DNA of 56,216 bases, filler included, from Jimgerdemannia flammicorona (lineage: Eukaryota), in the NCBI GenBank assembly GCA_003990765.1. It is 3 parts of 3 records of this genome, joined end to end, with 100 filler letters (N's around TTAATTAATTAA, not from the genome) between each part and the next. Parts side by side here need not be neighbours in the genome. Positions count along the whole stretch, not along the records: positions 37,545 to 56,216 come from RBNJ01002142.1; 2 more parts are not named here. One strand, written 5' to 3'. Made by a program: the position numbers and the translations under genes. Under the pieces are notes generated by a model. That model saw only the letters and a program-made list of their open reading frames with translations. It searched no databases and had not been told where the DNA came from. Below, one piece after another: positions 3,861 through 56,216 of this stretch (its first letter is position 1; the number at the start of each line of letters is the position of its first letter).

Positions 3861-5533
3861 TGGGTGCATTGGTAGAGGCAGGTGTCAAATTGATGGTGAA
3901 GCCAAAGAGGGATATGATTAATGTAGGCAATGGGTCCTGGGGATGTGGAGGAAGTATATGGTGAGATAAGGAATCCACAGGGTTAGATGCTGAAGAGATA
4001 TAACAAGCTTGAATTTCGAATCTGATTTCGAGACGTAAGAGAATGATATGATGAAGTAAGTCATTGATAAGAAGATGATGGCATGCCCAACCACTGGTCA
4101 ATGATTTGACACAGGGCTGGCTATCACACCAGAGAATAATACATTGAGAATGAAATAAGGGGCCCCAGAGCACCAACAAGACCCAAATGGCAAACATTTC
4201 TTTCCAGAATATGTCATAGCCATTCAGATCTAAGAAGGAGAGAGCCCAATGAGTGCTCCACCAGTGTTGGCCCAGCAGGCCGCCAGCACCAAGTGTCCCA
4301 GATGCATCTGTAAACAGACCACAATCAAGCCACTCAGAATGGCAGAGCAGGTGATGACCTGGCCATGAGTGTAGAATATCATACCACCACTGTAAGTCAG
4401 TGGCTAGTTGAGGAGGTGGAAAATGCCGCCCCACATAGGGCAGTTTCCAAGAGGAAGCAAAGCGAATGATGCCATCACAAAACACCTTTCCATCTGGAAG
4501 TATTTGAACAATGCACATAAGATGGCCCGAGAGTGATTGAGCTTCATAGTGTGAATATGGACATAGACAGTATGATCGAGTCTGCTGAGCCGGTATAAGC
4601 CATGATGCTAGTAAGGTGAGAATGCGTGTGTGTTTCTCTATTGGGAGACTAATCATCATTGTTGGAGCATCGAGAATGAAGCCAACATACTCTATAGTTG
4701 GAGTAGGAGGAATATCTTTGGAGGGTTTGAGTGGGAGGCTGAATCGAGATGCAATAGCATGAAATTGATTATAGGAGGAGAATGCGCTGGACGGAGGTGT
4801 GACATAGATAAAGTCATCAACGAAATGGCCCAAGTTAGGAAGATCATACAGTTGAATACAGATCCAGGTAAAGAGGTCCATGAGAGATGTGAAGATAAAG
4901 GGAGTGGAGTGAAGACCAAAGGGGAGGAACATGTCGAGGAAGAAAAGACCAAGCCAGCAGATACCCTGTATAGCCCAATCAGAGCAGTGTACTGGGATGG
5001 TGTGGAAGGCATCAGCTACATCGGCCTTCCAGAAGAGTGCAGTAGAGCTGACTGAGAGGAGAAGGAGAATGATGGCTTGAATGGACTGGTACTGGATTGA
5101 GAACTCCTCAGGATCGATTCTGTCATTGACTGAACTCCCATAGGGAAAGGATAGATATTATATAGTACAAAATTTGGACAAGTGCTTCTTAGGAATGGCA
5201 CCGAGGGGTACATTGCGAAAGGGGCAGAATTCTGGTAGTATAGAGGAGAGAGACAAAAATGGGCCAAGATAGCAACCCACAGCTAGCTCAGTGAGAATGT
5301 TGGTGGAGAGAACTTCTTGATGCTGGTAAGCGAAGGTAAGGTTGTCAGATATGAGGTCGATGTGAAGCTCAGGGTGAGAGTGATTTCCGTGCTGATAACC
5401 ATAATAGAGACCTGTTAGGTGGTACTAAACGAGTGATTGGTTTGGATGCGAATGCAGTACCCTTTTCCACTCCTTAATATGGTATGGGGTGGTTGGGTGA
5501 CTAGAAGTGGGGGGAATCGAGAGATTAGCCATG
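3850..5533 (-). pseudogene. RT/RNase H of the Ngaro element, disrupted
   Basis: ORF 3850-4932 has LPFGLHSTPFIF, HFVDDF, LFTDASG, EMFAI and WCDS; the upstream frame reads PLGAIPKK...LSFP..SSVNDRI. Start approximate. Confidence 0.88.
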
Positions 5534-18672: not shown

Positions 18673-18772
18673 NNNNNNNNNNNNNNNNNNNNNNNNNNNN
18701 NNNNNNNNNNNNNNNNTTAATTAATTAANNNNNNNNNNNNNNNNNNNNNNNNNNNNNNNNNNNNNNNNNNNN
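18673..18772. other. Artificial contig linker (N-TTAATTAATTAA-N)
   Basis: 100-bp block of Ns around a six-frame stop 12-mer, identical to 37445-37544. Confidence 0.95.
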
Positions 18773-37444: not shown

Positions 37445-37544
37445 NNNNNNNNNNNNNNNNNNNNNNNNNNNNNNNNNNNNNNNNNNNNTTAATTAATTAA
37501 NNNNNNNNNNNNNNNNNNNNNNNNNNNNNNNNNNNNNNNNNNNN
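37445..37544. other. Artificial contig linker
   Basis: Same N-TTAATTAATTAA-N block as 18673-18772. Confidence 0.95.
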
Positions 37545-37849
37545 TGTACTCTTTTTGCAATCGTAATTTGAATGTAGGAGAGCTGACATTCCTTGATCCA
37601 GTCTTCTTTTCCCATCTTTGGTTTTGAATTCAGTAGCTGTCCCAACTTGAAGTATTCCTGGAACTCGGTTCGGTTCTGGTAGGTCTTGAAATGTGAGATT
37701 CATGATAAGTGCGTCTGCACTATACTCTGGATGCTGTCGAAGGATTCCTCCATCATTGGTGGCTCAGTGGAACACCACTGTCTTTCTATAGCTCACTGGG
37801 CCATACTAGTGATCTTGAGGGCAGCAGCATTACTTCGTTGACTGGTCAT
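37545..37849 (-). pseudogene. Gypsy-B accessory ORF after integrase (partial; two in-frame TGA)
   Basis: From ATG 37849: MTSQRSNAAALKITSMAQ*AIERQW...HLS*ISHFKTYQNRTEFQEYFKLGQLLNSKPKMGKEDWIKECQLSYIQITIAKRV, running into the gap; similar to the LTR ORF at 45362. Confidence 0.7.
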
Positions 37850-39032
37850 GATACTTCTTGATTCGGTTTCGGTGAATGGTAGTAGGGATGATTGTGCCTG
37901 AGAGTTTTCGTAGCCAAAAGGTGGTCCCTTTTATATCTTGCACCAGATAAGGTCCTTCCCACTTAGGCTCCAGCTTTCGTGACCATGAAGCTTCTACCAT
38001 GTTCCGATACACCAGGACTTTGTCTCCTATCTTGATAATCTCCAGGGGCTTGTGAGTCTTTTCTGCATTACTCCATTGTAATGTCTGCGCCTTGTTTATA
38101 TAATCCTCAGCCTTCTTCCTTATTTGGTGCAGTTTCCGTATCTCTGTGTCCACTCGTTTCCATACAGCATCTGCATTGGATGATAGGGTTCCTTGAGAAC
38201 TTTCTTCTCCGAATAGCATTTCTCGAGGAGTGAAGTGGGTACTTTATGATCTGATATCCCGGAGAGCAGATAATGCTATTGGCAGATAGTGATCCCAGTT
38301 TTCATAGTTATCACAGATCTTGGCGATAATATTCTTGAGAGTCTTGTTGGTCCTTTCTGCTTGTCTGTTTCCTTGAGGGTGATAGGCTGTAGTCTGAATG
38401 TGCTAGATCTTGTACTTCTTGTAGAGAACCTCAAAGACCTGGTTCACGAATTCTGTTCCTCTGTCTGTAGTTACTTGCATTGGGGTCTTGAACCGGCAGA
38501 TGATTTCTTTGTAGAAGAAATCAGCAATTGACTGTACATTGGCTTCCTTGAGGGGTCCTGCTTCTATCCACTTCGTAAAGAGGTCTACAATGACAATGAT
38601 GTATCAGTTGCCGGTCAAGGTCAGGGGTAGGGGGCCAATTACATCCATTGCTATGTGGGCAAATAGTATCGGTTCTATATGTGCTGATCCCGGGGCTTGG
38701 TTCTGTTGGTCTTGTTTTTGTTTCTGGCATTTGTCACATGTTTTGACAAATTGTCTGATATCTTCCTCCATTCCTGGCCACCATATTGTTCTTCTTGCTT
38801 TATTGTATGTATTGGTTCCTCCTAGATGGCCGAGTTCATGTACTGATTTCATTGCTTGCTCCTTCCTGTGTTCTGGTATGACTAGTAGTTTTCCTTTCCT
38901 CAGTGTTTCTCCATCAGTTTCGAATTGTTTCCATGTCCTGTTGATAATTGTTTGTATCCATTCTTCCAGATGTTGGGGCATCTTTCGCTGTCCCAGATAT
39001 GTGATGATTCCGTAGTAGAGCTCCTTATTCAT
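37830..39032 (-). pseudogene. Gypsy-B integrase (separate reading frame, a few stops)
   Basis: MNKELYYG...HELGH...CDKC zinc finger, MDVIGPLP core, KLEPKWEGPY C-terminus; no chromodomain. Confidence 0.9.
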
Positions 39033-39039
39033 AATTGAT

Positions 39040-42012
39040 TCATTGGTTGGGGGTGTTTCGGGGTGTCCGTGAGAGAGCATCTGCATTGGAATTTGTTCTT
39101 CCAGGGCAGTGTACAATGGTTACATCATAGGCTTGTAACTTCATTATCCATCTGGCATAGATTCCCTTGGGTTGTCCAGTTGTCAGTAGCCAGGTGAGAG
39201 CTGAGTGGTCCATCTGAATGGTGAAGTGTCTTCCAGCCAGGTAGTAGTGGAACTTTTCCACAGCCCAGATGACTGCGAGACATTCCAACTTGTAGGATTC
39301 GTATTCTTTTTCGGCTCCTCGGGTTCCGCGGCTAAGATATGCAATGACATACTCCTTTTTGTCTTCCTTTTGAGCTAGGACTGCTCCTAGTCTCTGTACA
39401 CTTGCATCAGTCTGCAGGATGAATTCTTGAGTCCAATTGGGTTGTCTGAGGATGGGTGCCTGGGTCAGTCTGACCTTGAGTTCATCAAATGCTTTTTGTT
39501 GTCTGCCAGTCCACTGGAACTTGATGTCTTTTTTGTTGAGTTCGTAGATTGGACCTGCGATGTTGGAAAATCCTCTGATAAATCTACAATAGTAGGAGGC
39601 AAGTCCCATGAAGGCTTGGGCTTCCGTCACAGTGGTGGGCCTTAGGTATGCTGCTACTGCTTGTATCTTGAGGGGGTCTGTGTGTGTTCCATCTCGATTG
39701 ATAATGTGGCCAAGATAGGAGATTTCGATTTCTGCAAACTTGCATTTCTTGGGCTTGATGTACAGGCCATGCTTTCTCAGACTTTCCATTATCTGCTGTA
39801 TGTGCTGCAGGTGTTCCTCGGGTGTCTTGCTGTAGATGATTACATCATCCACATAAACCATCATCCATTTTCCCATATCATGGCGGAAGATTTTGTTCAT
39901 CATTCGCTGGAAGCTTGCTGGTGCATTGCACATCCCAAATGGCATTCGCAGGTAGATGTAGGTTCCATCTGGGGTTATGAAGGCTGACTTTTCGCTTGCC
40001 GTTTCTGTGGGTCCGATTTGGTGGAATCCTGAGTATAAGTCCAAGGTGCTGTAGTACTGTGCTTCATCTCCCAGTGTTATAAGGATGTCGCTGATGAGGA
40101 GCAGTGGTTGGCAATCTTTCTTGGTAACTGCATTGAGCTTTCTGTAGTCGACACAGAGTCTTGGGGCAAATTCTCCAGGCTTGCTTCCTTTTTTCAGGGC
40201 TAGTACAACTGGTGAAGACCAGGGGCTACTGGCTTCTTTGATAATACCGGCTTCTTCCATCTGCTTGATTTCTTCTCTGAGCCATTCCTGGTAGGCTGGC
40301 GGGACAGGTCTTGCTTTTTGGTAAATTGGTTCGGTGTCTCCAGTATCTACCTCATGATAGTAGTGTGGTGTTTTTCCTTTGATATCCTTGAAGTCTGTGG
40401 CAAGGACATCCTCGAATTCATGGAGTATTTTCTTGAGTTCCTCCTTGAGTGGGAATTCGTTTCCAATGGTATAGCTATGCTTGTTTGTGGTTTCCTCCTT
40501 CTTATGCTCCAGTTCAGTGATCTTGGTACTGGCAAATACTCCTTTTCCTGTGGATCCGAATCCTTTTTTTCCTCTTTTCGTTTCCTCCAACTTCTTGACT
40601 TCTATGATCTTTGGTTGTCGGACTTGGAAGATCAATATCTGTGCCAGTTGGTCCTTCTTCTTGATTGGGAATGGAATAGTAGGATTGTGATTCCTAGCGA
40701 TGAGTAGTATTTCTCCAATGTAGTCTGAATCGATGACTCCTCCTTCAATCATAATTTTACTTCTTGCCAAACTGCTTCTTGTCTTGAGGATCCCAACATG
40801 ATTTTTTGGGATGGTCATCTCCAGGCCAGTTGCAAGTAGAGTAGTTGTCTGGGGTTCAAGTACAGTTTCCTCTACTGTAGTGATATCCATTCCGGCTGCA
40901 TTTTCCGATTTGTATTCTGGCAGGACTGCATCAGGGTGAATCTTCTGGATTTTGACCTTGATTTCTTCTTCGTCATCACTGTCTTCCAGGAGGGCTGGTG
41001 GTTCGTCATCTTCCTCCTTGTCTTTTTCCTCTTTGGCTTGCTCCTTGAGAGTCTTTTCTCTTCTTTGGTGATGGATTTCCTTGATTTTGCTGGTGCACTG
41101 GTAGCACTCATTGACATGCTCCATACAGTACATTCGAATCCCATGTGGGCAGACTCCTTGTGGTGCATATCCTTCTGCGATCTTCTTGCACCATTCTTCT
41201 TCACTCATCCATCTGACTTTCTTCTTCTTTTTCTGTGTGGTCACTATGTAAGCTTCTTCTTGCTCATCTTCCTCCATCTCGGGGAGCACTCCTTTGTTGA
41301 CATTGATGGGAATTCGCATCTTCTGACCTCGGTAGATAATCTGCATCTTCTGAGCATTCAGGTCGATTATTGCCCTGGCTTTATGAAGCCACTGGTTGCC
41401 AATAAGAATGTCATAGTTGGTTGCATTGGTTACTATCACATCCACTGGAATAGTTGCTCCTCCAAACTTGATGGGAACATCTCGGATTTTTCCCAAAGGG
41501 GTGGCTCTTGTACCATCTGCTGTGACAAACACCAATTTGGTTGCTTCTTCAACCTCCCATCCCAGGTGGTCTACTGCCTTCTTGCTGAGGAGGCATCCTC
41601 CTGCTCCTGTATCTATGATGGCTTCAAAGATTCTGTCTTCGATTTGGCAGATTGCATAGGCGGAAGTCTTGTGGTTGTCTTCACTTTCTTCTCCAGAATC
41701 TTCTTGAACATTGTTGGCTTCAGTTATCTTCCAACCCTGCTCCTTGGTTGTTTCGGCAAGTCCAAATCTCATTTGCTGTCTAAACGTAGGAATTTCTGCG
41801 AGCTGGCCGAAGGTTGCATTGACTTTTTGTTGGCTGAGATCCTTGAAGATATCATACTTGAAGGTCTTGGTTTTGCGAAGCTTCTTCTCCTTTTCTCCTT
41901 CACTGGCTGGAGTAGTTCCTTGGATGATATCTTGAACTGCTTGTTCAAGCTCTATATCTTGATCCATTTCTTCGGCTTGGCTTTCCATGGCTGTTTCCAT
42001 CTGTTTTTCCAC
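39040..42012 (-). CDS. Gypsy-B pol segment: protease-dUTPase-RT-RNase H (990 aa open; same frame as gag)
   Basis: IIDTGA; AAGMD/RSS/GVIDSDY/AQ/RGKKGFGSTG; RLCVDYRKLN, MPFG, YVDD; TDAS, ADALSR. Confidence 0.93.
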   Translation of the reverse strand: MEKQMETAMESQAEEMDQDIELEQAVQDIIQGTTPASEGEKEKKLRKTKTFKYDIFKDLSQQKVNATFGQLAEIPTFRQQMRFGLAETTKEQGWKITEANNVQEDSGEESEDNHKTSAYAICQIEDRIFEAIIDTGAGGCLLSKKAVDHLGWEVEEATKLVFVTADGTRATPLGKIRDVPIKFGGATIPVDVIVTNATNYDILIGNQWLHKARAIIDLNAQKMQIIYRGQKMRIPINVNKGVLPEMEEDEQEEAYIVTTQKKKKKVRWMSEEEWCKKIAEGYAPQGVCPHGIRMYCMEHVNECYQCTSKIKEIHHQRREKTLKEQAKEEKDKEEDDEPPALLEDSDDEEEIKVKIQKIHPDAVLPEYKSENAAGMDITTVEETVLEPQTTTLLATGLEMTIPKNHVGILKTRSSLARSKIMIEGGVIDSDYIGEILLIARNHNPTIPFPIKKKDQLAQILIFQVRQPKIIEVKKLEETKRGKKGFGSTGKGVFASTKITELEHKKEETTNKHSYTIGNEFPLKEELKKILHEFEDVLATDFKDIKGKTPHYYHEVDTGDTEPIYQKARPVPPAYQEWLREEIKQMEEAGIIKEASSPWSSPVVLALKKGSKPGEFAPRLCVDYRKLNAVTKKDCQPLLLISDILITLGDEAQYYSTLDLYSGFHQIGPTETASEKSAFITPDGTYIYLRMPFGMCNAPASFQRMMNKIFRHDMGKWMMVYVDDVIIYSKTPEEHLQHIQQIMESLRKHGLYIKPKKCKFAEIEISYLGHIINRDGTHTDPLKIQAVAAYLRPTTVTEAQAFMGLASYYCRFIRGFSNIAGPIYELNKKDIKFQWTGRQQKAFDELKVRLTQAPILRQPNWTQEFILQTDASVQRLGAVLAQKEDKKEYVIAYLSRGTRGAEKEYESYKLECLAVIWAVEKFHYYLAGRHFTIQMDHSALTWLLTTGQPKGIYARWIMKLQAYDVTIVHCPGRTNSNADALSRTPRNTPNQ

Positions 42013-42144
42013 CAGGTTCTTCTTGGGTCTTCCTGGTGGTCTCTTGTAGGGTTCCTTGTGAACATCCTTCTTGGTAGTCTGTGCAGGGTAGGCCTCCCAT
42101 TCTTCGTCTGACTCTCCAATTTTCTCAAAGGTGATGATGTTGGC

Positions 42145-43014
42145 CTATTCCTTGTTTTTAGTAGCATTGCTCAGCTGGGCCTTGTGCTTAGTTTCACTCA
42201 TACATTCATATGAGTAGTGGCCTTCTTCTCCACAGCTATAGCAGGTACCTTTCTTCTTGTCTGAGGTGGCGGCAAACTTCTGAATCGGGTGGCGATCTCT
42301 TCCTCTAATTTCTTTTACTACATCCCCTAGGTGAGCAGTCATTTTGGCGAACTGCTTGGCAAGCTCCTCCATGGGGTTGCTGTTTCTCTACTACTCTGTA
42401 GCTCTCATTTGAGGTGTGTTTCGATTGATCATTGTGGTGGGGATCATACTGGTTGCCTTGGGTGCTTCAATTCTAACTCCAGTGACTCTTTCCATTGTGT
42501 GGTCTTGTGGGTGTCTGGCTATCCAATATCGCTGAGCATAGGTGACCTTCTGTGGCAGATCCAGAACTACTGGTGATGAGCGAATAGCCATAGCTATCTC
42601 TAGATGGACTCCTTTCATGAAGCTTGCTTCAGCTACTTGATCTCGGATAGCATCAGCATAATCTGCGAGAATTATCTGATATCGGATTCAGGTGTAGAAT
42701 GTGTTTGGATCCTTGCTCATTCCTTGGCATGTTGTATTGAGCTGATCCTTCAGGGCTTGCTTAATCTCCTCTGTGTAGTAGGTATTTTGAAGCCAGGTCT
42801 TCTGTGCTGTCAGTATGACATAAGCATCATTTCCTGCATGGGTTGCGGCTGTGAATACTGCTCTGGCAGGACCTCATAGACTGAAGGGCATGAGGGCTAC
42901 TTGCTGTGCTGCTGTCAGGGTTCTTACAGCGGCGTACTGCTCGAAATCATCGATGAAAGTGATGATTGATTCATCTGAGGTATATCCATGGAATACTGGT
43001 GGTCTCATATCCAT
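42145..43014 (-). pseudogene. Gypsy-B gag (few disruptions)
   Basis: Starts MDMRPPVFHG; CCHC knuckle; the TAG at 42145 aligns with a Gln codon in family C (REQTN), implying a single gag-pol frame. Confidence 0.85.
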
Positions 43015-43109
43015 CTTGTCTTGGTTTCTTGCCTCGGTTTGTATGGTTGTTTGGGTGGTGGCGGTTGTTCATTGTTCAGCTTGAAAGTGAGGGATTCGTC
43101 TTGAATCAC

Positions 43110-43125
43110 CAGCCAATGGGCACCA
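43110..43125 (-). promoter_or_regulatory. Primer binding site of Gypsy-B (tRNA not assigned)
   Basis: TGGTGCCCATTGGCTG begins 3 nt after the LTR terminal CA; nearly the same at 46900. Confidence 0.7.
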
Positions 43126-43128
43126 AGT

Positions 43129-43592
43129 TGTAACGTAGCAGACGCTTACTCTTGAAAGTACGTCAGATTTCTGTATCTTGAATACTTGATCTTCTCTGAC
43201 TCCTCGGAGTCCTTGGGATGCAGGGGTGGGTGAGTTCGAAGTGTATCTGCCCGCAGGCTTACTAGTTCCTTTGCTTTCTCTTTGCTTTAAACTATTTCAA
43301 TCTGAGGTTTATTCACTCGAAGATACTGGGTTATTTATACAAGTTTGCTAGCTATAAGGTGGCTAAGTGGTGAGTCATTCTGCAAGTATCGCATCTTTCA
43401 ATATCTGCTAGGATTTCACTGATTGCAAACATTCTAACATCTCCTAAATCTTTGCAAACATTAAAGTTTCTGCACTTTGCAGAATATGACTGCTATTTAT
43501 GTGGCTAAACTATATTGGGAATCAGATTCAGGTACCGCGATCAAATGTCTAATTTCCCTGTTTCATGTTACTAATTCGGATCAACTGTCACA
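43129..43592 (-). repeat. Gypsy-B 5' LTR (464 bp)
   Basis: tgtga...ttaca ends; homologous to 27234-27710; TATA, AATAAA and TCAG core at 43339-43301. Confidence 0.88.
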
Positions 43593-45120
43593 ATATGAAA
43601 GTCATTCTATTAGTATAGTGTTGAATATATATATAGTTATCTACTTTACAGTATATAAAGTCATTGTTAAAGAGATATTTATTGATTTTCTATTTCACAA
43701 ACAGACTGCTTACTTAATACTATATAATTCTTTATATAGTTTATATAATAGTTCATTCTACTTATCATTCTGCTAATATCCTTATAATTGGTAAATGTAT
43801 AACTCTATATCTATATCATTATTGAGAAAGATCATCTTTACATCTATCTGATGGATTTTCAGATTATATATAATACTGATTGCAAGAAGTATTCTTAGTA
43901 AAGTAAGCTTGAATATTGGTAAAAATATCTCACCATAGTCTATACTATAATTTTGCAAATTATTCTTAGCTATAAAATGTACTTTATATTACTCTATACT
44001 TCTATCACTCTTATGCTTAATTTTATAGATCTAATGAGATCTTATAACTTATTGATTGATCAGAAGAATACCAGATCTAATATACTATTCTTGATAAGTA
44101 AATTATATTCTTCATCTATAGCTTACTTCTATCTCTTATTGTCAGGAGAAGTTATCACTTTGTTGTATATTCTTAGCTCACTAGAAGTTACAATAAATGT
44201 ATATTTGTATATCTTAGTATAGCTTATATAGTCCTTATATTAAGAGATCTTTAGTATATTCTAATAACTTCTAAATTAGAATAAGTCTCATTTCTGAGCT
44301 TATGCTTTGACTTTTCCCTATCTTTGATAGACCTTTTGTTATCAGAAGTTTTATCACTCTTAATCTCTATTATTCTGAACTCAGATATATATAGTAATTG
44401 AAAATAATTTTAACTTATCAGAGAGGTTGATACTGAATGTTATACTGGTTGAAATGTAGATGTTAAAGTAGAGGTCAGGACAGATATATCTATGTGAATC
44501 TCTTTATTATTTTCTTTTTCATTGAACTATATGTTATATAAGATTAATGTATAATATTTATATAAATTTCACAATCTATACAATTTTCTATTATATCTAA
44601 GGAATATATACTCATCACTCTTAGGCTCAAATTTATACTGATTCTCTCCTTTTTCCAGAATATAGACTTTGTATCCAAATATATATAGATATAAAATTTT
44701 TAGCTTTATTCTGCTCCATAACTCCTCAGGAGTAAGATCGTGATTATTTCTGAATTACTTATTATTGTTATCAGATTCCTTACTCAATACTTAAGATATA
44801 TATCAGTTGTAGATATATATATATATTACTATATTGATAGTTTCAGTCTAATAAGAATATAATAGTCTAGCTATATTGATTATTATATATATCATTTTCA
44901 CAGCTATATAGTTAAATTGCTCAGCTATATCATTCTGCTGAGACATATATAGAGCTATTTATTGTGATAAACAGAAGAAGCAATTTATTCAAAAATACAT
45001 ATATTGTATATTTCATATATTACTGATGAATGACATAAAACTGATGAAATGGTATAAGCATAAAGTCATATACCTATATATTGAGTTACTATTCCAATAC
45101 TGTTATTTAATGATATACAT
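43593..45120 (-). pseudogene. Heavily mutated Ty1/copia relic (integrase core then RT)
   Basis: Minus-strand translation gives IALYMSQQNDIAEQFN (copia TAPYTPQQNGVAERxN) near 44960-44910, and IDYGEIFLPIFKLTLLRILLA...IHQIDVKMIFLN near 43945-43820. Confidence 0.8.
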
Positions 45121-45361
45121 TGTAATGGTGACCCCAGAATGATGACATCAGCACAGGAGATAGCCTTTCCTTGCAAGCCACCAGATCGGAGCACAAGAAG
45201 ATTATACAGCATATGAGATGAGTAGTGATGACCAACTGTGAGTCATTGTGACCATGGTATGGTATCTGGAGGAATATAAAAGAAGGATCAAGGAACTGCA
45301 GTAGCAGCAATCAACAAGACCCACTAATCCCAAAATAGCTCAAAGATTTACCACAAATGAA

Positions 45362-46174
45362 ATGCCTGCTGCCCGCCAAATCTCAAGGTCAAGAAATCAC
45401 CAAGATATCTCAGTCAAGGAAAGAATGTTCCAAGACATCAGAAGAGCCATGAGGACCTGCTCAATAAGGACTCCTAGTGTCAACCTGGGTACTGTAGATC
45501 CCTATTACTTTATCCTCTACTGCCATGAAATAGAAACAAGGATCACCATTGCTACTGAATGCCTCCAAATTTGGCAAGAGTATGAAATAGGAAACCTCCT
45601 CTGCCAGGAGTTCCCACAGGCCAGCACTCAAGAGCTACAAGATGCCACTCCCATGGACATACGCAAAACAAGGACAGCTAAGAAGATCCATCAGATCTTC
45701 TGGCATGCACCATGGTCAATCCCCAACTTAGAGTATGTTAGAGTCTCAGATTTCAGAGATCTGTCATCTCACTGTATCAATGCACTAGAAGCCAGGGTGG
45801 CTACAGAAGCCCAGTCCACTATTACCCTCAACAGTGAAGAAGTAGAAAACTTCTGGCATCCCATCCTTCAGGACAACCCAGACCAATTCCTGCAAGGATT
45901 GATCTCAGTATTCCAAGGCCCAAGCATCCAGGTTAGACCTCCCCAAGACCCCATATTTGTTCCCTATTTTGTGGAAGAGAACCTCATAGACTGGAGAGCT
46001 CCAGATCTCCTTGTTCTCAATTTCTCCGCCACCGAACATAATGACGTCATTGGCAATAACGTCATTCCACATGACATCGAAGCACACAAAAATGACGAAT
46101 TTGCAGATCTCATCTCCTTCAGTGATGATGATGATGATGATGAAGCCCCCATGATCCTGAAAATTCTGCTCTAA
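45362..46174 (+). CDS. LTR-encoded accessory protein of unknown function, 270 aa, acidic C-terminus
   Basis: Open frame inside the LTR; TATAAAA at 45275; same frame in all three LTR copies, with in-frame length differences. Confidence 0.8.
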   Translation: MPAARQISRSRNHQDISVKERMFQDIRRAMRTCSIRTPSVNLGTVDPYYFILYCHEIETRITIATECLQIWQEYEIGNLLCQEFPQASTQELQDATPMDIRKTRTAKKIHQIFWHAPWSIPNLEYVRVSDFRDLSSHCINALEARVATEAQSTITLNSEEVENFWHPILQDNPDQFLQGLISVFQGPSIQVRPPQDPIFVPYFVEENLIDWRAPDLLVLNFSATEHNDVIGNNVIPHDIEAHKNDEFADLISFSDDDDDDEAPMILKILL

Positions 46175-46185
46175 GTCCCATATTA

Positions 46186-46306
46186 CACTGAAGAATGCCA
46201 GCACCGGTATTTGATGTAATACTGAAGAATGCCAGTACTAGCATTTGATGTAACACTGAATAATGCCAGCACTGGCATTCTGAGGTAACACTGAATTATA
46301 CCAGCA
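46186..46306 (+). repeat. ~3.5 tandem 34-35 bp repeats, each containing an 18-bp palindrome
   Basis: Unit cactgaagaatgccagcactggcatttgatgtaa; also at 53630-53750 and 55623-55743. Confidence 0.85.
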
Positions 46307-46432
46307 TCCTGAATCTGTACAACCACCAGTGCCAACCTTGGAACTTAGTAGTTTTCCTATCCTGGCATTTTATTTTAGTTATTGGAATTTATATTTAGCT
46401 TTATATCTTAGTAATCATTAAATTATATTTTG

Positions 46433-46471
46433 TATAAATACTCCTCTTATTTCCTTTGAAATAAAGTCAGT
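46433..46471 (+). promoter_or_regulatory. Putative LTR core promoter/polyA module (TATAAATA-AATAAA-TCAGT)
   Basis: TATAAATA 46433, AATAAA 46460, TCAGT 46467; the same order occurs in family A (227-265) and family B LTRs. Confidence 0.55.
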
Positions 46472-46896
46472 TCTGGTTCACTTATATACTTCCTTGCAAG
46501 CAATCTAAGAGATAACAAGACAGTTTAAAGATAAGAAGTTTGAGGACTATAAGACCTTGGGAAGGCACTCCAATAAGAACTTACTTATAACAAACTTGTA
46601 GTTAGTCTAAGAGATATACCTTGAAGAGAATCTGATGTATTTGAAGGACTCAATGCCCACTATATGACAATGTGTATAATATAGTCTCCTCAGTTCTGGT
46701 TCACTTATGTATACACAATTCCTTGCAAGCAATCTAAGAGATAACAAGACAGTTAAAGATAAGAAGTTTGAGGACTATAAGACCTTGAGAAGGCACTCCA
46801 ATAAGAACTTACTTATAACAAACTTGAGTTAGTCTAAGAGATACACCTTGAAGAGAATCTGGCATATTTGAAGGACTCAGCGACCACTATGTGACA
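46467..46896 (+). repeat. Tandem duplication of the ~205-bp LTR 3' end (46467-46669 and 46690-46896)
   Basis: Both units start tcagttctggttcac and end cactat(a/g)tgaca; present in all three C LTRs. Confidence 0.9.
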
Positions 46897-46899
46897 ACT

Positions 46900-46915
46900 T
46901 GGTGTCCATTGGCTG
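46900..46915 (+). promoter_or_regulatory. Primer binding site of Gypsy-C
   Basis: TGGTGTCCATTGGCTG, 3 nt after the LTR end. Confidence 0.7.
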
Positions 46916-47016
46916 GTGATTCAAGATGAATCCCTCACTTTCAAGCTGAAAAACGAACAACCCCCACAACAACTACCCTGACTACAAGAGTCACTCCTGT
47001 AAGAATTCAAGACAAG

Positions 47017-50000
47017 ATGGAAATGCATCCCCCCACATTCTATGGATATACTACTGAAGAGTCAATCCTGACCTTCATTGAAGACTTTGAACAATTCGCT
47101 GCCATATGAGCCCTTAGTGTGGATGCACAATTGGCCCTCCTACCAGTCAGCCTCAGAGGACCTGCCAGAGATAAGTTCAATGCAACCACTATTGCTGATG
47201 CTGGTGCAGCCAAACTTGCCAACATGAAGGCCTTCCTCAGGACAACATATTATACTGAAGAGATAAGTAAGCTCTCAAGGATCAACTCAATACTATCTGC
47301 CAGGGACTTAGTGAAGATCCCAACTCATTCTATACTCAAATCTGCCACCAGATTGTCTTGGCTGGCTATGATGACTGCCTCAAGGAACAAATAGCGGATT
47401 CAACCTTCCTCAAAGGAGTTTACCCTGAAATTGCCCTAGCAATCTGGTCTACCCCAGCTGCACTGACTCTTGATCAGAAAGTGGTCTTTGTACAGAGATA
47501 TTAGACTGCCAGACACCCTGCCGAACACTCAATAGAGAAAATAACTGGCATCAAGATGGAGCCATCAAAGCCAACTAGTATCATACCTACCATAGTTGTA
47601 AACAGACAATCAACCCCACATACCCCCAAGACAGCCAAAGCTGACCCAGTGGAGGAACTTGCCAAGCAGTTCATCGAGATGACTGTACACCTTGGTGATG
47701 TTGTTAGAGAAGTCTGAAGTGCCAACAGGAGACCAGTGCAGAGATTTGCAGCTGCTACAGAAGAATGCAATATCACATACTTCAGATGTGGAGAAGAAGG
47801 CCACTATGCAAAGAGTTGTATGACTGAAACAAGATGCAAAGCCCAACCAAACAATGCTAGCAGAACCAGAGAACAAACCAATGCAGTAGTCATTGAGGAG
47901 ATTGGTGACACTAATGATGAAGAATACTATGAGGAGCTTGAATTCTACCCTGCTACTGAAGGTACCAGAACCTGGTCCAAGCCCTATGACAAGAAGAGCA
48001 ATAGCAAGCCAGTTAGAAGACCAAAGAAGACCCCAGCTGTCACCATTCAAAGCAAGACTCAACCTGAGGAGATAGATGAAGCTATCTGCCAAATTATAGA
48101 AGGCACTACTCCAGTCTCAGGAGAAAGCAAAAGCAAGAAGGAACAGAAGCTGTGCAAGACCAAGATCCACCAGTATGATATCTACAAGGACCTCAAGGAA
48201 CAGAAGGTCAATGCTACTTTTGGACAGCTAGCCAAAGTCTCTGCCTTCAGACAGCAGTTGAGAGTAGGACTTGCAACTACCACCAAGAATCAAGAGTACA
48301 AGATTGTAGAAGCTTACAATGTACAAGAAGAATCCGAAAACTCAGATGAAGAATCTGAAGATCAGCACAAGACATCAGCCTATACCCCATGTCAGATCAA
48401 AGACTGTAGCTTTGATGCCATCATTGATACTGGTGCTGGAGGATGCCTCATGAGCAAGAAGGCAATTGACCGCTTAGGCTGGGACATTGAAGAGTCCACC
48501 AAGATGGTCTATGTTACAGCAGATGGTACATGAGCTATCCCCCTTGGCAAAATCTGAGAAATCCCCATCAAGATAAGAGGAGCTACCATCCCAGTAGACG
48601 TGATTGTTATAAGTACCACCAACTATGACATTCTTATTAGCAATCAATGGCTTCACAAGGCCAAGGCCATCATTGACCTCAATACCCAGAAGATACAGAT
48701 CAACTATAGAGGAAGAAAGGTACAAGTCTCTATCAATGTCCACAAGGAGTTCTACCAGACATGGAGGAAGGAGATGAAGAGGACACAGAAGTCTTCATGC
48801 ACTCAGTGAACAAGAATAAGAACAAGACACCCAAGCTCACAGATGAGCAGTGGTACAACAAGATCATTGATGGCTATGCCCCTCAAGGAAGATGCCCCCA
48901 TGGTACTAGGATGTACTACTCTGAATACCTGAATGACTGCTGGTCCTGTATCAGTGAAGTCAGGAAAATCCACCAACAGAAACATGAGTAAGAAGCTGCT
49001 GAAGCAAAAAGGAAAGCTGAAGAAGATGACCAGCCCCCAGAGCTTCAAGCTGACAGTGATGATGAGGAGGAACAAGAACCAGATATCACCCTCAAGGTTA
49101 AGAAGTTCTACCCCAAAGCCAAGATCCCAGAATACAAGACTGAAGGAGCCATAGGAATGGACCTTGCCAGTATTCAAGATGCTACCCTCAAACCACAGAC
49201 CACTACCCTACTTGGCACTGGAATTGGAGTCAAGCTGCCAGAGAACCATGCCGGAATTATCAAGACCAGAAGCAGTCTGGCCAAAAGTGAAATCTCAGTT
49301 GAAGGAGGAGTAATTGACCCTGATTACACTGGCGAGATCTTCTTTATAGTCAGGAATCACAACCCCATCACCCCATTCGAAGTCAAGAAGCATGACAGGA
49401 TTGGCCAGATGCTGATCCACGAAATCAAGAAACCCAAGATCATTGAAGTCATTGAACTCATCAAGACCAAGAGAGGAGAACAAGGCTTTGGATCTACTGG
49501 AAGAGGAGCCTATGCTACCACCAAGATTACCAAACTTGAGCACAAGAAAGATAAGGACCAGAACAAGCACACATATACTATTGGAGAAAATTTTCCCCTG
49601 AAAGAACAACTTCTCAAGATCCTGCACCAGAATGAAGGAGTACTTGCTACAGACTTCAGAGATATCCACAATCAAGAACCCAAGTACTACCATAAAGTTG
49701 ATACTGGTGATACCAAGCCCATCTACCAGAAAGCCAGACCCATACCACCTGCCTATAGAGAATGGCTGCAAGCAGAACTCAAGGAAATGGAAGAAGCCAG
49801 AATCATCAAGTAAGCTATCAGTCCCTGGGTTTCACCCATTGTCCTCACCCCAAAGAAAGGAAGCAAGCCTGGAGAGTTTGCACCAAGACTCTGCATTGAC
49901 TATAGGAAGCTCAATGCCATTACCAAGAAGGATAGGCAGCCCTTGCCAAATATTCAAGAAATCCTTACCACCCTTGGAAGTGAAGCCAAATACTACACCA

Positions 50001-51022
50001 CCTTGGATCTGTTCTCAGGCTTCCATCAGATTGGTCTCACACAAGATGCCAGTGAGAAATAAGCCTTCATCACACCTGATGCCACCTATATCTACCTGCG
50101 AATGCCATTTGGAATGTGCAATGCCCCAGCAAGTTTTCAGTAAATGATGAACAGAGTCTTCAGCAATGAGATTGGAAAATGGCTCTTTGTCTATGTTGAT
50201 AATATGATCATCTTCAGCAATACTGCACAGGAACATGTCAATCATATACAGCTAGCCCTCAAGAAGCTCAAGGAGCATGGTCTCTACATTAAGCCCAAGA
50301 AATGCAAGTTTGCAGCTCAGGAAATCACCTACCTAGGACACCTCATCAACCAGACCAGAATCCACACAGACCCTATGAAGATTGAGGCTGTTGCAGCCTA
50401 CCCAAGACCCAGAACAACCACAGAAGTCCATACCTTCCTTGGACTGGCCAGCTACTACAGAAGATTCATCAAAGGATACTCCAACATTGCAGCACCTATC
50501 TATGAGCTACTGAAGAAGGAAACCAAATTCGAATGGACCAAGGAGCACCAAGAAACCTTCAATGAACTCAAGACCAGGTTGACCCAAGCACCTATCCTCA
50601 GAAGACCAGATTGGAATCTAGAATTCATCTTGCAGACAGATGCAAGTATCATAGGACTTAGAGCAGTCCTAGCTCAGAAGAAAGATGAACATGAATATGT
50701 CATCTCCTATACAAGCCAAGGTACCTATGGAGCAAAACAGAATTACAAGTCATGTAAGCTTGAATGCTTAGCAGTAGTCTAGGCAGTAGACAAGTTCCAC
50801 TACTATCTAGCTGGGAAACACTTCACCATTCAAACAGACCATTCTGCTCTTGCCTGGCTATTCTACACTCTGAACCCCAAAGGAATATATGCCAGATGGA
50901 TCTACAGGCTACAAGAGTATGACTGTACTATCAAGTACTGCTCAGAAAGAACCAACACCAATGCTGATGCACTCTCAAGAACACCCTGAAACACCCCCAC
51001 CAAAACTATTCAACATGAATAA
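47017..51022 (+). pseudogene. Gypsy-C gag-PR-dUTPase-RT-RNase H, disrupted
   Basis: Fragments 47736-48533 (knuckle, IIDTGA), 49157-49813 (dUTPase motifs) and 50144-50782 (RT/RH); colinear with family B. Confidence 0.92.
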
Positions 51023-52200
51023 GGAGCTATACTATGGATTAATCAGCTACCTTGGGCAGCAGAAGATGCCCAACCACCTTGAACCCTGGACAATCACCAT
51101 CATCAACCAGACTTGGAAACAGTTTGAACTAGACAACACTATACTCAGAAAAGGAGGAAAGCTAGTAATATCTGAATACAAGAAGTATCAAGTAATGAAG
51201 GAAGTACATGAGCAAGGACACCTAGGAGGAACCAACATATATGACAAGGCAAGAAGAACCATGTGGTGGCCCAAGATAGAAGAAGACCTGCGCCAATTTG
51301 TTAAAGGGTGTGACAAGTGCCAAAAACAGAAACAAGATCAGCAAGACCAGGCACCTGGGTCATCAAGAATTGAGCCTATCCCCTTCAATAGATATCATTG
51401 GGCCACTACCAGTAACACTATCAGGAAACCACTATATTATAGTTATTATAGACCTGTTTACAAAATAGATAGAGGTAGGAGTATTACAAGAAGCCAATGC
51501 CCTCTCTATAGCCGACTTCCTGTACCAAGAAATCATCTGCCGCTACAAGACACTGAAGCAAATCACAACAGACTGTGGTACAGAATTTGTCAATGGATTC
51601 CATGAGATAATATACCAGAAATACAAGATCTAGCACATCAAGACCACTGCATACCACCCTCAAGGAAATGGACAGACAGAGAGAACCAACAAGACCCTCA
51701 AGAACATCCTGGCGAAGATCTCAGAGACATATGAGAATTGGGATAATTATCTCCCAACTGCCCTCTCTATCCTATGAGACATATGGTCACAGAGCACACA
51801 CTTTACCCCAAGGGAACTGCTCTTTGGAGAAGAAGATTCTGATGGAACCTCAGCTACAAATCTAGACCTAACTTGGAGATGGGTTGATGCAGAAATCCAG
51901 AGACTACACCAAATCAGGAAGAAGGCTGAAGATTATATCATCAAGTCACAAGCACTGACAAGGAAGAATGCAGAAAAGAATCACAAGACCCTAGAACCCA
52001 TTCGAATTGGAGAAAAGGTTCTACTGTATCAAAATATGGTAGAAGCCTCATGGTCATGAAAACTGGAGCCCAAATGGGAAGGACCCTTCTACATGCAAGA
52101 TATCAAGAGAACTACCTTCTGGCTTAGAAAAATCTCAGGAACTATACTGCCCACTATGGTGTACAGGAACAGACTCAAGAAGTACCACAAACCTATATAA
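51015..52200 (+). pseudogene. Gypsy-C integrase (separate frame), disrupted
   Basis: MNKELYYG, HEQGH...CDKC, KLEPKWEGPF; a small deletion near 51385 shifts the frame. Confidence 0.88.
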
Positions 52201-52554
52201 GAGAAGTAAAACGTGATGACTGCCCATGAGATTCTAGTCTGCAAATCATAACAGCATGTCTTGTGACCAGCAGGCTATCTGTCTGGACCATTCTTTAAGA
52301 GATATGGCACTGACAACTACTCATCCATGAGACTTTCGAAGTCAGAGGAGTTTGAACCATCAACTGATTAGTCAAGATCAGAATCAGGCCCTTGCTCTAT
52401 ATGAAGGGAGTAACCCTTCACCATCACACCAAAATACAAAGAGAAGATGCCATCCCATAAACATCACTTTTCAACCCCTTGCCAGAGGTTATGGGATCAG
52501 AAAATTTTTCAGGACTGGACTAATGAATAAGGACACTCAAGGAGATCCTTATTC

Positions 52555-52564
52555 AGGAGGAAGA
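52555..52564 (+). promoter_or_regulatory. Polypurine tract
   Basis: aggaggaaga directly before the 3' LTR TG. Confidence 0.7.
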
Positions 52565-54336
52565 TGTAATAGTGACTCCAGAATGATGACATCAGCACAG
52601 GAGACAGCCTTTCCTTGCAAGCCACCAGATCAGAGTACAAGAAGATTATACAGTATATGAGATGAGCAGTGATGACCAACTGTGAGTCATTGTGACCATG
52701 GTATGGTATCTGGAGGAATATAAAAGAAGGATCAAGGAACCACAGTAGTAGTAACCAATAAGACCCACCAATCCCAAAATAGCTCAAAGACTTACCACAA
52801 ATGAAATGCCTGCTGCCCACCAAACCTCAAGGTCAAGAAATCACCAAGGCATCTCAGTCAAGGAAAGAATGTTCCAAGACATCAGAAGAGCCATGAGGAC
52901 CTGCTCAACAAGGACTCCTAGTGTCAACCTGGGTACTGCAGATTCCTATCACTTTATCCTCTACTGCTGTGAAATGGAAACAAGGATCACCATTGCTACT
53001 GAATGTCTCCAAATGTAGCAGAAGGACAAAATAGGAAACCTCCTCTGCCAGAAGTTCCCACAGGCCAGCACTCAAGAGCTATAAGATGTCACTCCTATGG
53101 ACATACACAAAATGAGGACAGCTAAGAAGATCCATCAGATCTTCAGGCATGCACCATGGTCGATCCCCAACTTGGAGTATGTTAGAGTCTCAGATTTCAG
53201 AGACCTATCACCCCACCATATCAATGTACTAGAAACCAGAGTGGCTACAGAAGCCCATTCCACTATCACCCTCAATAGTGAAGAAGTAGAAGACTTCTGG
53301 CATCCCATCCTTCAGGACAACCCAGACCAATTCCTGCAAGGATTGATCTCAGTATTCCAAGGCCCAAGTATCCAGGTTAGACCTCCCCAAGACCCCACAT
53401 TTGTTCTCTATTTTGTGGAAGAGAACCTCATAGACTGGAGAGCTCCAGATCTCCTTGCTCCTGATTTTCCCGCCGCCAAACATGATGATGTCATCAGCGA
53501 TGATGTCATCCTGCGCAACATCGAAGCATGTGAAAATGATGAATTTGTGGATCTCATCTCCTTCAGTAATGATGATGATGATGATGAAGCCCCCATGATC
53601 CTGAACATTCTGCTCTAAGTCCCATGTTACACTGAAGAATGCCAGTACTGGCATTTGATGTAACACTGAAGAATGCCAGCACTGGCATTTGATGTAATAC
53701 TGAATAATGCCAGCACTGGCATTCTGAGGTAACACTGAATTATACCAGTATCCTGAACCTATACAACTACCAGTGCTGACCTTGGAACTTAGTAGTTTTC
53801 CTATCCTGGCATTTTATTTTAGTTATTGGAATTTATATTTAGCTTTATATCTTAGCAATCATTGAATTATATTTTGTATAAATACACCTCTTATTTCCTT
53901 TGAAATAAAGTCAGTTCTGGTTCACTTATACACTTCCTTGCAAGCAATCTAAGAGATAACAAGACAGTTTAAAGATGAGAAGTTTGAGGACTATAAGACC
54001 TTAGGAAGGCACTCCAATAAGAACTTGCTTATAACAAACTTGTAGTTAGTCTAAGAGATATACCTTGAAGAGAATCTGATGTATTTGAAGGACTCAATGC
54101 CCACTATATGACAATGTGTATAATATAGTCTCCTCAGTTCTGGTTCACTTATACACAATCCCTTACAAGCAATCTAAGAGATAACAAGACAGTTAAAGAT
54201 AAGAAGTTTGAGGACTATAAGATCTTAGGAAGGTACTCCACTAAGAACTTGCTTATAACAAACTTGAGTTAGTCTAAGAGATACACCTTGAAGAGAATCT
54301 GGCATATTTGAAGGACTCAGCAACTACTACATAACA
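52565..54336 (+). repeat. Gypsy-C 3' LTR (1772 bp)
   Basis: Colinear with the 5' LTR; ends ...ataaca. Confidence 0.93.
52806..53618 (+). pseudogene. LTR-encoded accessory ORF, 3' LTR copy with two nonsense transitions
   Basis: TGG-to-TAG at 53016 and CAA-to-TAA near 53082; otherwise colinear with 45362-46174. Confidence 0.85.
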
Positions 54337-54519: not shown

Positions 54520-56216
54520 TGTAACAGTGACCCCAGAATGATGACATCAGCACAGGAGACAGCCTTTCCTTGTAAGCCACTAGATCAAAGCACAAAAAAG
54601 ATCATACGATATATGAGATGAGCAATGATGACCAACTGTGAGTCATTGTGACCACAGCACAAGCACCCTGAAGAATATAAAAGAAGGATCAAAGAACCGC
54701 AGTAGCAGCAACTAACAAGAACCACCAATCCCAAAATAGCTCAAAGACTTACCACAAATGAAATGCCTGCTGCCTGCCAAACCTCAAGGTCAAGGAACCA
54801 CCAAGGTATCTCAGTTGAGGAAAGGATGTTCCAAGACATCAGAAGAGCCATGGGGACCCGCTCAAGAAGGACTCCTAGTGTCAACCTGGGAACTGCAGAC
54901 CCCTATCACTTCATCCTCTACCGCTGTGAAATGGAAACAAGGATCACCATTGCCACTGAATGCCTCCAAATGTGGCAGGAGTACGAAATAGGAAACCTCC
55001 TCTGCCGGGAGTTCCCAGAAGCCAGCACCCAAGAGCTACAAGATGCCACCCCCATGGACCTACGTGAAACAAGGACAGCTAAGAAGATCCATCAGATCTT
55101 CAGGCATGCACCATGGTCGATCCCCAACTTGGAGTATGTTAGAGTCTCAGACTTTAGAGACCTGTCATCCCGCCGTATCAATGCACTAGAAGCCAGGGTA
55201 GCTACAGAAGCCCAGTCCACCATCACCCTCAATAGCGAAGAAGTAGAAGACTTCTGGCACTCCATCCTTCAGGACAACCCAGACCAATTCCTGCAAGGAT
55301 TGATCTCAGTATTCCAAGGCCCAAGCATCCGGGTTAGATCTCTCCAAGACCCCACATTTGTTCCCTATTTTGTGGAAGAGAACCTCATAGACTGGAGAGC
55401 TCCAGATCTCCTTGTTCCCGATTTTCCCACCACTGCCGAACGTGATGACGTCATCGGCGATGACGTCATCCTGCGCGACATCGAAGCACGCGAAAATGAT
55501 AAAGTACATGAGATACGTGGCCTGCATGATGAATTCACGGATCTCATCTCCTTCAGTGATGATGATGATGATGAGGATGAAGCCCCCATGATCCTGAACT
55601 TTTTGCTCTAAGTTCTTTGTTACACTGGATAATGCCAGCACCGGTATTCTCATGTAACACTGGATAATGCCAGCACCGGTATTCTGAGGTGACGCGAAAT
55701 TGTTCCAGCACTGGTATTTTGATGTAACACTAAATAATACCAGCCTTGGAACTTAGTAGTTTTAGTTATTGGAATTTATATTTAGCTTTATATCTTAGCA
55801 ACCATTGAATTATATTTTGTATAAATACCCCTCTTATTTCCTCTGAAATAAAGTCAGTCTACTCAGTGCAATATACACACTTCCTTGCAAGCAATCTAAG
55901 AGATAACAAGACAGTTTAAAGATAAGAATTTTGAGGACTATAAGACCTTGGGAAGGCACTCCAATAGGAACTTGCTTATAACAAACTTGTAGTTAGTCTA
56001 AGAGATATACCTTGAAGAGAATCTGATGTATTTGAAGGACTCAATGCCCACTTTATGACAATGTATATAATATAGTCTTCTCAGTGCAGTACACACACTT
56101 CCTTGCAAGCAATCTAAGAGATAACAAGACAGTTAAAGATAAGAAGTTTGAGGACTATAAGACCTTGGGAAGGCACTCCAATAAGAACTTGCTTATAACA
56201 ACTTGAGTTAGTCTAA
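54520..56216 (+). repeat. Third family-C LTR (younger variant), runs off the window end
   Basis: Starts tgtaacagtgaccccag; colinear with 45121-46840; more CpGs retained. Confidence 0.92.
54763..55611 (+). CDS. LTR-encoded accessory protein, 282 aa (least mutated copy)
   Basis: Intact frame; extra residues relative to the 270-aa copy are in frame. Confidence 0.82.
   Translation: MPAACQTSRSRNHQGISVEERMFQDIRRAMGTRSRRTPSVNLGTADPYHFILYRCEMETRITIATECLQMWQEYEIGNLLCREFPEASTQELQDATPMDLRETRTAKKIHQIFRHAPWSIPNLEYVRVSDFRDLSSRRINALEARVATEAQSTITLNSEEVEDFWHSILQDNPDQFLQGLISVFQGPSIRVRSLQDPTFVPYFVEENLIDWRAPDLLVPDFPTTAERDDVIGDDVILRDIEARENDKVHEIRGLHDEFTDLISFSDDDDDEDEAPMILNFLL

Follow-up and report, generated by a model that had tools for sequence, protein, structure and literature searches.

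LTR Copies and the ORF They Carry

The window (the whole stretch of DNA analyzed here, 56,216 nucleotides (nt) joined from three records of the Jimgerdemannia flammicorona assembly GCA_003990765.1) holds in its last ~11 kb three copies of a ~1.78-kb long terminal repeat (LTR) of a dUTPase-bearing Ty3/Gypsy retrotransposon, each of which carries the same open reading frame (ORF) in the sense orientation. Two of the copies, ~7% apart, bound a single element, and the third belongs to a separate insertion. The copies, their ORFs and the leader that follows the first LTR are located as follows:

45121–46896, + strand: LTR copy A, the 5′ LTR of the element, 1776 bp, with TGT...ACA ends
45362–46174, + strand: LTR gene of copy A, 270 codons plus stop (46172–46174), intact
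46899–46922, + strand: primer-binding-site-like leader TTGGTGTCCATTGGCTGGTGATTC, near-identical to that directly after the LTR of a sister family
52565–~54336, + strand: LTR copy B, the 3′ LTR of the same element as A, 92.9% identical to A
52806–53618, + strand: LTR gene of copy B, 270 codons, two stops
54520–56216, + strand: LTR copy C, a separate insertion ended by the window end, 84.9% identical to A
54763–55611, + strand: LTR gene of copy C, 282 codons, intact

The features attributed to this LTR in a preliminary description, i.e., an upstream TATAAAA, the ORF, palindromic repeats and a TATA-AATAAA-TCAGT core, were all found in place. The ORF of copy A is bounded on its 5′ side by an in-frame TAG (45302–45304), and the two stops in copy B (TGG to TAG at 53016–53018 and CAA to TAA at 53082–53084) are both transitions. 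The three ORF indels that distinguish A and B from C (3, 30, and 3 nt) are without exception multiples of three, and those of the noncoding LTR are mostly not (for example, 31, 21, 4, and 1 nt). The frame is thus kept in three LTR copies, two intact and one with two transition stops, with the indels in frame, as had been described. The accompanying reservation about intactness was also retained, with two disruptions per 1.62 kb in the two LTR ORFs of the element versus nine per 3.1 kb in its pol: the intactness of the ORF in this window proves nothing on selection by itself.

The ORF is A-rich with C exceeding G, resembling gag-pol in composition. An origin as a gag or pol paralogue was ruled out, because the tblastn matches in the window were limited to the three LTR copies, the next-best match having E = 0.098. 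An additional, out-of-frame ATG lies 5 nt before the ORF ATG in A, B, and C (45357–45362 region in A) and opens a frame of 31 codons in A, the corresponding stop-to-stop frame in C comprising 83 codons; it is missing in the related locus L001 (see below), where the ATG of the Met-Pro start is the first one.

The 3′ LTR is directly preceded by a purine tract (52556–52564; ...CAGGAGGAAGA|TGTAAT), which supports the LTR boundaries, as does the leader after the 5′ LTR through its conservation in the sister family. LTR-related sequence was plentiful in soil metagenome runs (2156 contigs in run X1), and the contigs ending at 45121 extended leftwards into the same purine tract (five in X1 and four in X8), which places the ORF inside the LTR in further copies. 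This confirmed that the LTR boundary in other copies likewise takes in the ORF, a point on which the preliminary description had been open to refutation. No tRNA was matched as a primer to the leader after the 5′ LTR, and no matching target-site duplication of 4–6 bp was found between the 5′ flank TACAT and the 3′ flank ACCTA/CTATA.

Relatives of the ORF Protein and Selection on the Gene

A single-sequence search with the ORF protein retrieved six relatives, an exhaustive search of 1.84 billion representatives gave five matches (four of them at E ≤ 1e-30) and a profile search gave 13 proteins at E ≤ 0.001, with identities as low as 27–33%. Altogether there are ~14 relatives, with identities down to 27–37%. 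All of them are anonymous proteins from short metagenome contigs (4.8 kb in the case of the distant relative P0009), encoded by ORFs of 200–340 amino acids (aa), and they have in common an MP start, conserved blocks in a helical core and an acidic tail ending in ...P..LNF.L. L001, the single relative found with its DNA (one locus recovered from 537 metagenome pattern matches), shares 60% protein identity with the ORF. Further relatives at the DNA level were found in none of 24 viral contigs and none of 19 prokaryote genomes, and fused or longer forms were absent among 8000 candidates of 600–2000 aa, which is weak evidence. No host-like paralogue was present among the 1.84 billion representatives. 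For a small orphan protein family (~14 clusters), the LTR gene supplies both a location in the genome and a role that can be tested.

The ratio of nonsynonymous to synonymous substitution rates (dN/dS) was calculated pairwise by the NG86 method, and the corresponding proportions (pN/pS) were compared with 1000 permutations per pair that kept the substitution spectrum. Such a null was used because transitions dominate the close pairs (70 transitions to 5 transversions between A and B). The results were:

A–L001: pN/pS 0.42, null mean 0.84, 0 of 1000 permutations as low
A–C: pN/pS 0.32, null mean 0.60, 2 of 1000 permutations as low
B–C: pN/pS 0.37, null mean 0.61, 15 of 1000 permutations as low
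A–B: pN/pS 0.50, null mean 0.59, 285 of 1000 permutations as low

The dN/dS values were 0.17–0.25 against L001, where saturation of dS (1.4–2.1) makes the ratio imprecise, 0.28–0.34 between insertions and 0.47 between A and B of the same element, while the two shifted frames gave 0.90–1.55 against L001. For these four sequences, dN/dS, the measure to which the preliminary description had pointed for a larger set of copies, came out well below 1 between lineages (0.17–0.34), and only in the ORF frame. The divergence of the surrounding U3 (the unique 3′ part of the LTR) behaved differently in the two kinds of comparison: between A and C the ORF differed by 9.5% and the flanking noncoding U3 by 12.9 and 14.4%, whereas within the element (A–B) the ORF had decayed faster, at 9.3% versus 6.2 and 6.1%, for which its higher C content is the probable reason. 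Of 275 metagenome variants in the ORF, the 22 listed (8 synonymous and 14 nonsynonymous) were set aside as evidence on selection; they are mostly private changes of copy A.

When the differences between LTRs A and B were polarized by C, 89 of 119 proved to be C>T/G>A changes, distributed over CpA (58), CpG (9), CpC (15), and CpT (7) and including both stops of copy B. This CpA>TpA spectrum we take to be a signature resembling repeat-induced point mutation (RIP) and pointing to a fungal host, as the AT-rich decayed neighbors presumably do as well. At 1.8 kb, the LTR pair is of sufficient length to be a target for a RIP-like process.

The substitution patterns confirmed that the ORF is a genuine gene, on which purifying selection has acted between lineages of the element. 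The A–B differences are, by the same comparison, neutral, as expected of decay after insertion, and the pattern as a whole fits a transposon gene, with constraint during the activity of the lineage and free decay once inserted. It is very improbable that the ORF lacks a function, either as a chance frame that spread with a successful LTR or as the decaying remains of a captured host sequence. The age of the window copies, the two stops in one of them, the neutral A–B differences and the lack of a known domain in the protein speak for such an origin; against it stand a between-lineage pN/pS far under the null, solely in the ORF frame, the persistence of ORFs of 200–340 aa at 27–37% identity with in-frame indels, and the lack of a host-like paralogue.

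Promoter-Like Signals and Probable Placement of the ORF in U3

The signals on which the placement of the gene depends, together with the LTR of the sister family used for comparison, are:

45121–45304, + strand: 5′ part of U3, the proposed promoter of the LTR gene, with TGAGTCA (45239–45245) and TATAAAA (45275–45281)
46185–46306, + strand: 34-bp tandem repeat, 3.6 units, with a palindrome of the AATGCCAG-N2-CTGGCATT type
46433–46471, + strand: core, with TATAAATA (46433–46440), AATAAA (46460–46465) and TCAGT (46467–46471)
43129–43592, − strand: sister-family LTR, ~464 bp, without the ORF; its core holds the only TATA

The combination TATAAATA-N26-TCAG recurred with an exact spacing of 26 nt in the LTR family, in L001 and in the sister-family LTR, and the 26 nt between the core motifs had diverged except for AATAAA. 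A TATA-initiator core promoter fits this arrangement because the distance of ~30 nt from TATA to TCAGT is fixed, and the proposed role of the core is to promote and start the genomic RNA and to supply a shared poly(A) signal. With AATAAA just 5′ of the start, the terminally repeated region R of the LTR would be short. Since the ORF lies 5′ of the conserved TATA-N26-TCAGT core, U3 is its most likely address, and we consider this placement reasonably probable; the deduced start positions, hence an ORF in U3 and not in R, appear credible to the same degree. The 464-bp sister LTR without the ORF also favors U3, and it makes the ORF-bearing 1.2 kb a lineage-specific addition 5′ of an ancestral core promoter.

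The second TATA box, TATAAAA at 45275–45281, is located 87 nt 5′ of the ORF ATG. In L001 the sequence GAATATAAAAG was kept at 11 of 11 positions, 60 nt before the ATG, in a region that had otherwise diverged. Use of this upstream TATA is slightly favored by such conservation.

The same two sets of signals might be assigned differently, with the upstream TATAAAA (45275) as the only promoter and TGTATAAATA...AATAAA...TCAGT as a poly(A) signal only. The ORF would then occupy an R of ~1.2 kb and be the first cistron of the genomic RNA as well as of short RNAs ending at the first poly(A) site, so that gag expression would depend on reading through that site together with either splicing or internal initiation. 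Conservation of the upstream TATA and of its distance to the ATG in L001 agrees with this assignment, as do a TGAGTCA 30 nt before the upstream TATA, paralleled by a TGACTCA ~35–45 nt before the single TATA of the sister LTR, and the combination of UGUAUA and AAUAAA, which resembles yeast-type poly(A) elements. It is nevertheless unlikely: in three diverged families TATAAATA and TCAG are separated by exactly 26 nt, which fits a TATA-initiator pair, the 464-bp sister LTR has no TATA besides the one in this core, and an R of 1.2 kb that placed a 270-codon ORF before gag would prevent the translation of gag if it were not removed by splicing.

Expression in the retroviral manner was also considered. 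Here, as for the sag gene of mouse mammary tumor virus (MMTV) or nef of human immunodeficiency virus (HIV), the gene would be read mainly from a spliced subgenomic RNA starting at the core promoter of the 5′ LTR, with the leader joined to an acceptor before the ATG in the 3′ LTR, and the upstream TATA would have no role. The gene is indeed present once per genomic RNA, in the 3′ U3, and an acceptor-like TAG lies 20 nt before the ATG (45341–45343); however, a branch-like CTAAT is present in copy A only (CCAAT in B and C), the TAG is missing in L001 and the upstream TATA is conserved, all of which makes this route highly unlikely.

The heptamers mentioned above, TGAGTCA at 45239–45245 and TGACTCA at ~43371–43377 of the sister LTR, are of the AP-1/Gcn4 type. 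They precede the upstream TATA of the ORF-bearing LTR and the lone TATA of the sister LTR by 30–45 nt, and about one match per 1.8 kb would be expected by chance.

Features and Possible Function of the Protein

Neither of the two intact copies of the protein matched a Pfam family at E ≤ 0.01, and no match was obtained in a PDB profile search at E ≤ 10 or with Foldseek at E ≤ 0.001; the best ESM Atlas score was 0.88, below the 0.9 line. The AlphaFold2 models had predicted local distance difference test (pLDDT) values of 53.2 and 55.0, with a better helical core at approximately residues 85–160. In a wide VIA search two chains reached Z ≥ 5 but no chain reached Z ≥ 8, the top rows being a TetR-type helix-turn-helix over residues 63–108 (Z 5.2 and 5.1), which is within the noise of this tool for helical models. 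The profile and structure searches to which the preliminary description had looked for the identity of the 282-aa protein (PDB profile and Foldseek) consequently provided no family or fold.

The charge is unevenly distributed along the chain. Residues 1–45 are basic and Arg/Ser-rich, with a net charge of +5/+6 and RSR/RSRR runs, the core has a net charge of −12/−14, and the tail from residue 216 to the end has a net charge of −12/−17 together with F/L/I/M residues, including DLISF and MILNFLL. The acidic/hydrophobic tail quoted in the preliminary description, DLISFSDDDDDEDEAPMILNFLL, is that of copy C. With its basic N-terminus and acidic-hydrophobic tail, the protein is probably a nuclear regulator. 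That it is a nuclear activator of LTR transcription is a tentative proposal; the transactivator or anti-silencing role suggested for the tail earlier is a possibility drawn from composition.

An activator would have its candidate target in the 34-bp palindromic repeats, which lie 3′ of the gene and 5′ of the core promoter. Folded as RNA, they reached z = −4.44, a stability that none of 200 shuffles equaled. In copies A and C the palindrome of unit 1 is imperfect, and no compensatory changes were observed in the repeats; since they are, moreover, not kept in L001, covariation favors no repeat-based role. Rfam gave no matches in the window.

A different function of the protein at the same place in the LTR can be entertained as a tentative possibility: an RNA adaptor of the Rev/Rex/Rem kind, a protein that counteracts silencing by the host, or a repressor that limits copy number according to its dose. 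The adaptor would bind the repeated RNA hairpins and export or stabilize unspliced RNA. Several complex retroviruses have response elements within their 3′ LTR, which would be in line with such an activity. An Arg/Ser-rich N-terminus (net +5/+6), a Leu/Ile-rich C-terminus and the stable hairpins formed by the 34-bp repeats (z = −4.44) speak for it, and Cer1 of Caenorhabditis elegans is reported to have such an accessory export protein (PMC10309623). On the other side, the hairpins show no compensatory change, the repeats are absent in L001, and no RNA-binding fold appeared in the fold searches with the ORF protein.

Proposed Mechanism

Taken together, the data are read as follows: the ORF of 270–282 aa functions as an accessory gene of the dUTPase-bearing Ty3/Gypsy retrotransposon in whose LTR it is housed, and it is expressed by the mechanism given below; the probability of this reading is roughly 60%. 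The genomic RNA would start at the TATAAATA-N26-TCAGT core (~46469) and be polyadenylated shortly after AATAAA (46460), so that U3 would extend from 45121 to ~46468 and contain the whole gene. Because the gene would lie wholly in U3, it would be copied into both LTRs in each round of reverse transcription. The upstream TATAAAA (45275) would start an mRNA ~30 nt downstream, in a 5′ LTR, a 3′ LTR, or a solo LTR alike, and this monocistronic mRNA of ~1.15 kb would read the ORF and end at the poly(A) signal of that LTR. In this form the LTR would be a transcription unit complete in itself, in which splicing is unneeded and gag-pol expression is unaffected. For the protein and the repeats, a loop resembling that between Tas and the internal promoter of foamy viruses is tentatively proposed.

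The most far-reaching version, in which the LTR is an autonomous cassette, its product is a trans-acting activator or silencing antagonist, and the layout of complex retroviruses was reached independently, is doubtful. If true, it would mean two expressed gene copies per insertion, solo LTRs serving as helper genes, and positive feedback dependent on copy number.

Several observations weigh against the proposed reading. L001 lacks the palindromic repeats that are its candidate target, and Pfam, the PDB profile search, Foldseek and VIA recognized no domain for DNA binding or activation. The string UGUAUA...AAUAAA can also be taken for a fungal-type poly(A) signal; the core might then serve in termination alone, the upstream TATA would be the one promoter, and the ORF would consequently be in R. 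Apart from the saturation of dS against L001, the DNA of the family comprises four sequences; at several nonsynonymous sites copy A stands apart from almost every metagenome contig, and the intact copies in the window are decayed and inactive.

LTRs are treated as noncoding by annotation pipelines, in LTR-divergence dating and in solo-LTR analyses. A selected gene inside an LTR breaks the assumption of neutrality for part of it, and solo LTRs become potential protein genes. In a host with RIP-like mutation, the length of the LTR pair (1.8 kb) also exposes it to that process, a cost for which the gene must pay.

The Backbone Element, the Sister Family and Their Surroundings

The remaining parts of the element and its neighborhood are:

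46897–52564, + strand: internal region with gag (ATG 47018, CCHC), protease (PR), dUTPase, reverse transcriptase (RT), RNase H (RH) and integrase (IN); many frame breaks
46467–46896, + strand: R-U5 of copy A (U5 being the unique 5′ part of the LTR), unit 1 at 46467–46670, spacer at 46671–46689, unit 2 at 46690–46896; the units are ~92% identical
37849–43592, − strand: sister Gypsy element, gag-pol 69% identical, with the same leader and the same core

Domains were found along 47718–51605 in the order zf-CCHC, Asp protease, RVT_1, RT_RNaseH_2, and Integrase_H2C2, and the element belongs to Ty3/Gypsy (Metaviridae) by this order and its CCHC gag. A dUTPase (PF00692, E = 1.4e-29, 48992–49813) is inserted between protease and RT. 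The sister element has the same Gypsy domain order, a dUTPase at E = 9e-28 and an intact 1034-aa PR-dUTPase-RT-RH frame (39040–42144); compared with that intact polyprotein, the region 47880–51004 contains one frame change and eight in-frame stops. A second copy of the sister LTR begins at the same point, near 27230.

The R-U5 part of the LTR is a tandem duplication joined by a 19-nt spacer, TGTGTATAATATAGTCTCC, in all three copies. At GACAA|TGT the sequence resembles an LTR-LTR junction of the circle type from which U3 was almost wholly deleted, and a full LTR and a mini-LTR may have fused to give the LTR seen today. As a proof of the start site, the duplication was dropped; the unit does not start exactly at TCAGT because the 19-nt spacer resembles a remnant of the TATA region.

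The 5′ LTR of the sister element adjoins an AT-rich decayed Copia-like stretch (43600–45120). Positions 1–37200 are transposon debris as well, with an RT-bearing element with a long second ORF (3095–5157, − strand; a weak RVT_1 match only) and two diverged LINE-like copies (~28.8–32.1 and 32.2–37.1 kb) with a strong G-over-C skew. Four 44-nt runs of N are located at 18673–18772 and 37445–37544.

Comparison with Known Systems

Additional ORFs of LTR retrotransposons are lineage-specific and mostly orphan, as far as the accessible parts of three studies go (PMC7264820, PMC5408684, PMC10309623). Examples are ORF1 of plant Ogre, the env-like gene of Tat/Athila, the antisense ORF of Grande, the ORF3s of bdelloid rotifers and CERV of C. 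elegans Cer1, and they differ from the gene described here in lying in the internal region, either ahead of gag or behind pol, and not in the LTR, as far as their abstracts indicate. In the searchable text of PMC7264820, phrases placing ORFs in the LTR, including "within the LTR" and "overlap," occur 0 times, and the same is true of phrases placing genes in the LTR, including "within LTR" and "overlaps," in that of PMC5408684.

The backbone resembles that of dUTPase-bearing fungal Gypsy elements, with the order gag-PR-dUTPase-RT-RH-IN and the dUTPase between PR and RT, as exemplified in the accessible text of PMC2864245 by PosPlaTy3-5 of Postia placenta and elements of Phanerochaete and Tuber. 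That part of the source places no gene in the LTR, and a figure legend names an "add. ORF" of unspecified role. According to the available part of PMC5408684, elements of bdelloid rotifers share the PR-dUTPase-RT order, which is why the backbone alone is not host-diagnostic. A study of the Podospora element crapaud concerned diversification of U3, with no coding. In the literature that could be searched, subscription papers being mostly uncovered, no case of an LTR retrotransposon whose LTR houses a gene was found, and the matches to an ORF in an LTR were almost all to MMTV. The statement of the preliminary description that LTRs are normally noncoding agrees with this searchable literature, an absence in a limited body of text being no proof.

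The arrangement is otherwise known mainly from a few retroviruses. Among retrotransposons, an LTR with an independently transcribed gene, as proposed here, has a counterpart in Cassandra, a group of terminal-repeat retrotransposons in miniature (TRIM) that lack gag-pol and have a 5S RNA gene with its own promoter in each LTR. The Cassandra gene specifies a Pol III noncoding RNA, in contrast to a Pol II-type protein gene in an element of autonomous type.

In having an accessory regulatory gene at the 3′ end that reaches into U3, foamy viruses (tas/bel1, bel2/bet) and HIV (nef) are similar. Their genes, however, begin 5′ of the LTR and merely overlap U3, and they have no homology to the LTR gene; a relation to Sag, Nef, Tas, or Bet was supported neither by Pfam (0 at E ≤ 0.01) nor by the PDB profile search (0 at E ≤ 10). 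In foamy viruses, an activator with an acidic tail is expressed at a basal level from an internal promoter and in turn drives the LTR. That promoter is located in env, in contrast to the proposed promoter within the LTR, and the activator role is a prediction for the gene described here.

The nearest architecture is that of MMTV sag, a sense ORF of ~300 codons in an LTR of more than 1.2 kb, 5′ of the core promoter and present in both LTRs, of which the LTR gene would be an analogue without homology. Sag comes from a vertebrate retrovirus and is a type II membrane glycoprotein, in contrast to an acidic, soluble-looking protein from a retrotransposon. It is read largely from spliced RNAs; for the LTR gene, transcription from the upstream LTR TATA is proposed instead. 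The element would thus represent a splicing-free route by which a retrotransposon can gain a regulatory gene, parallel to MMTV sag and to the internal promoter of foamy viruses.

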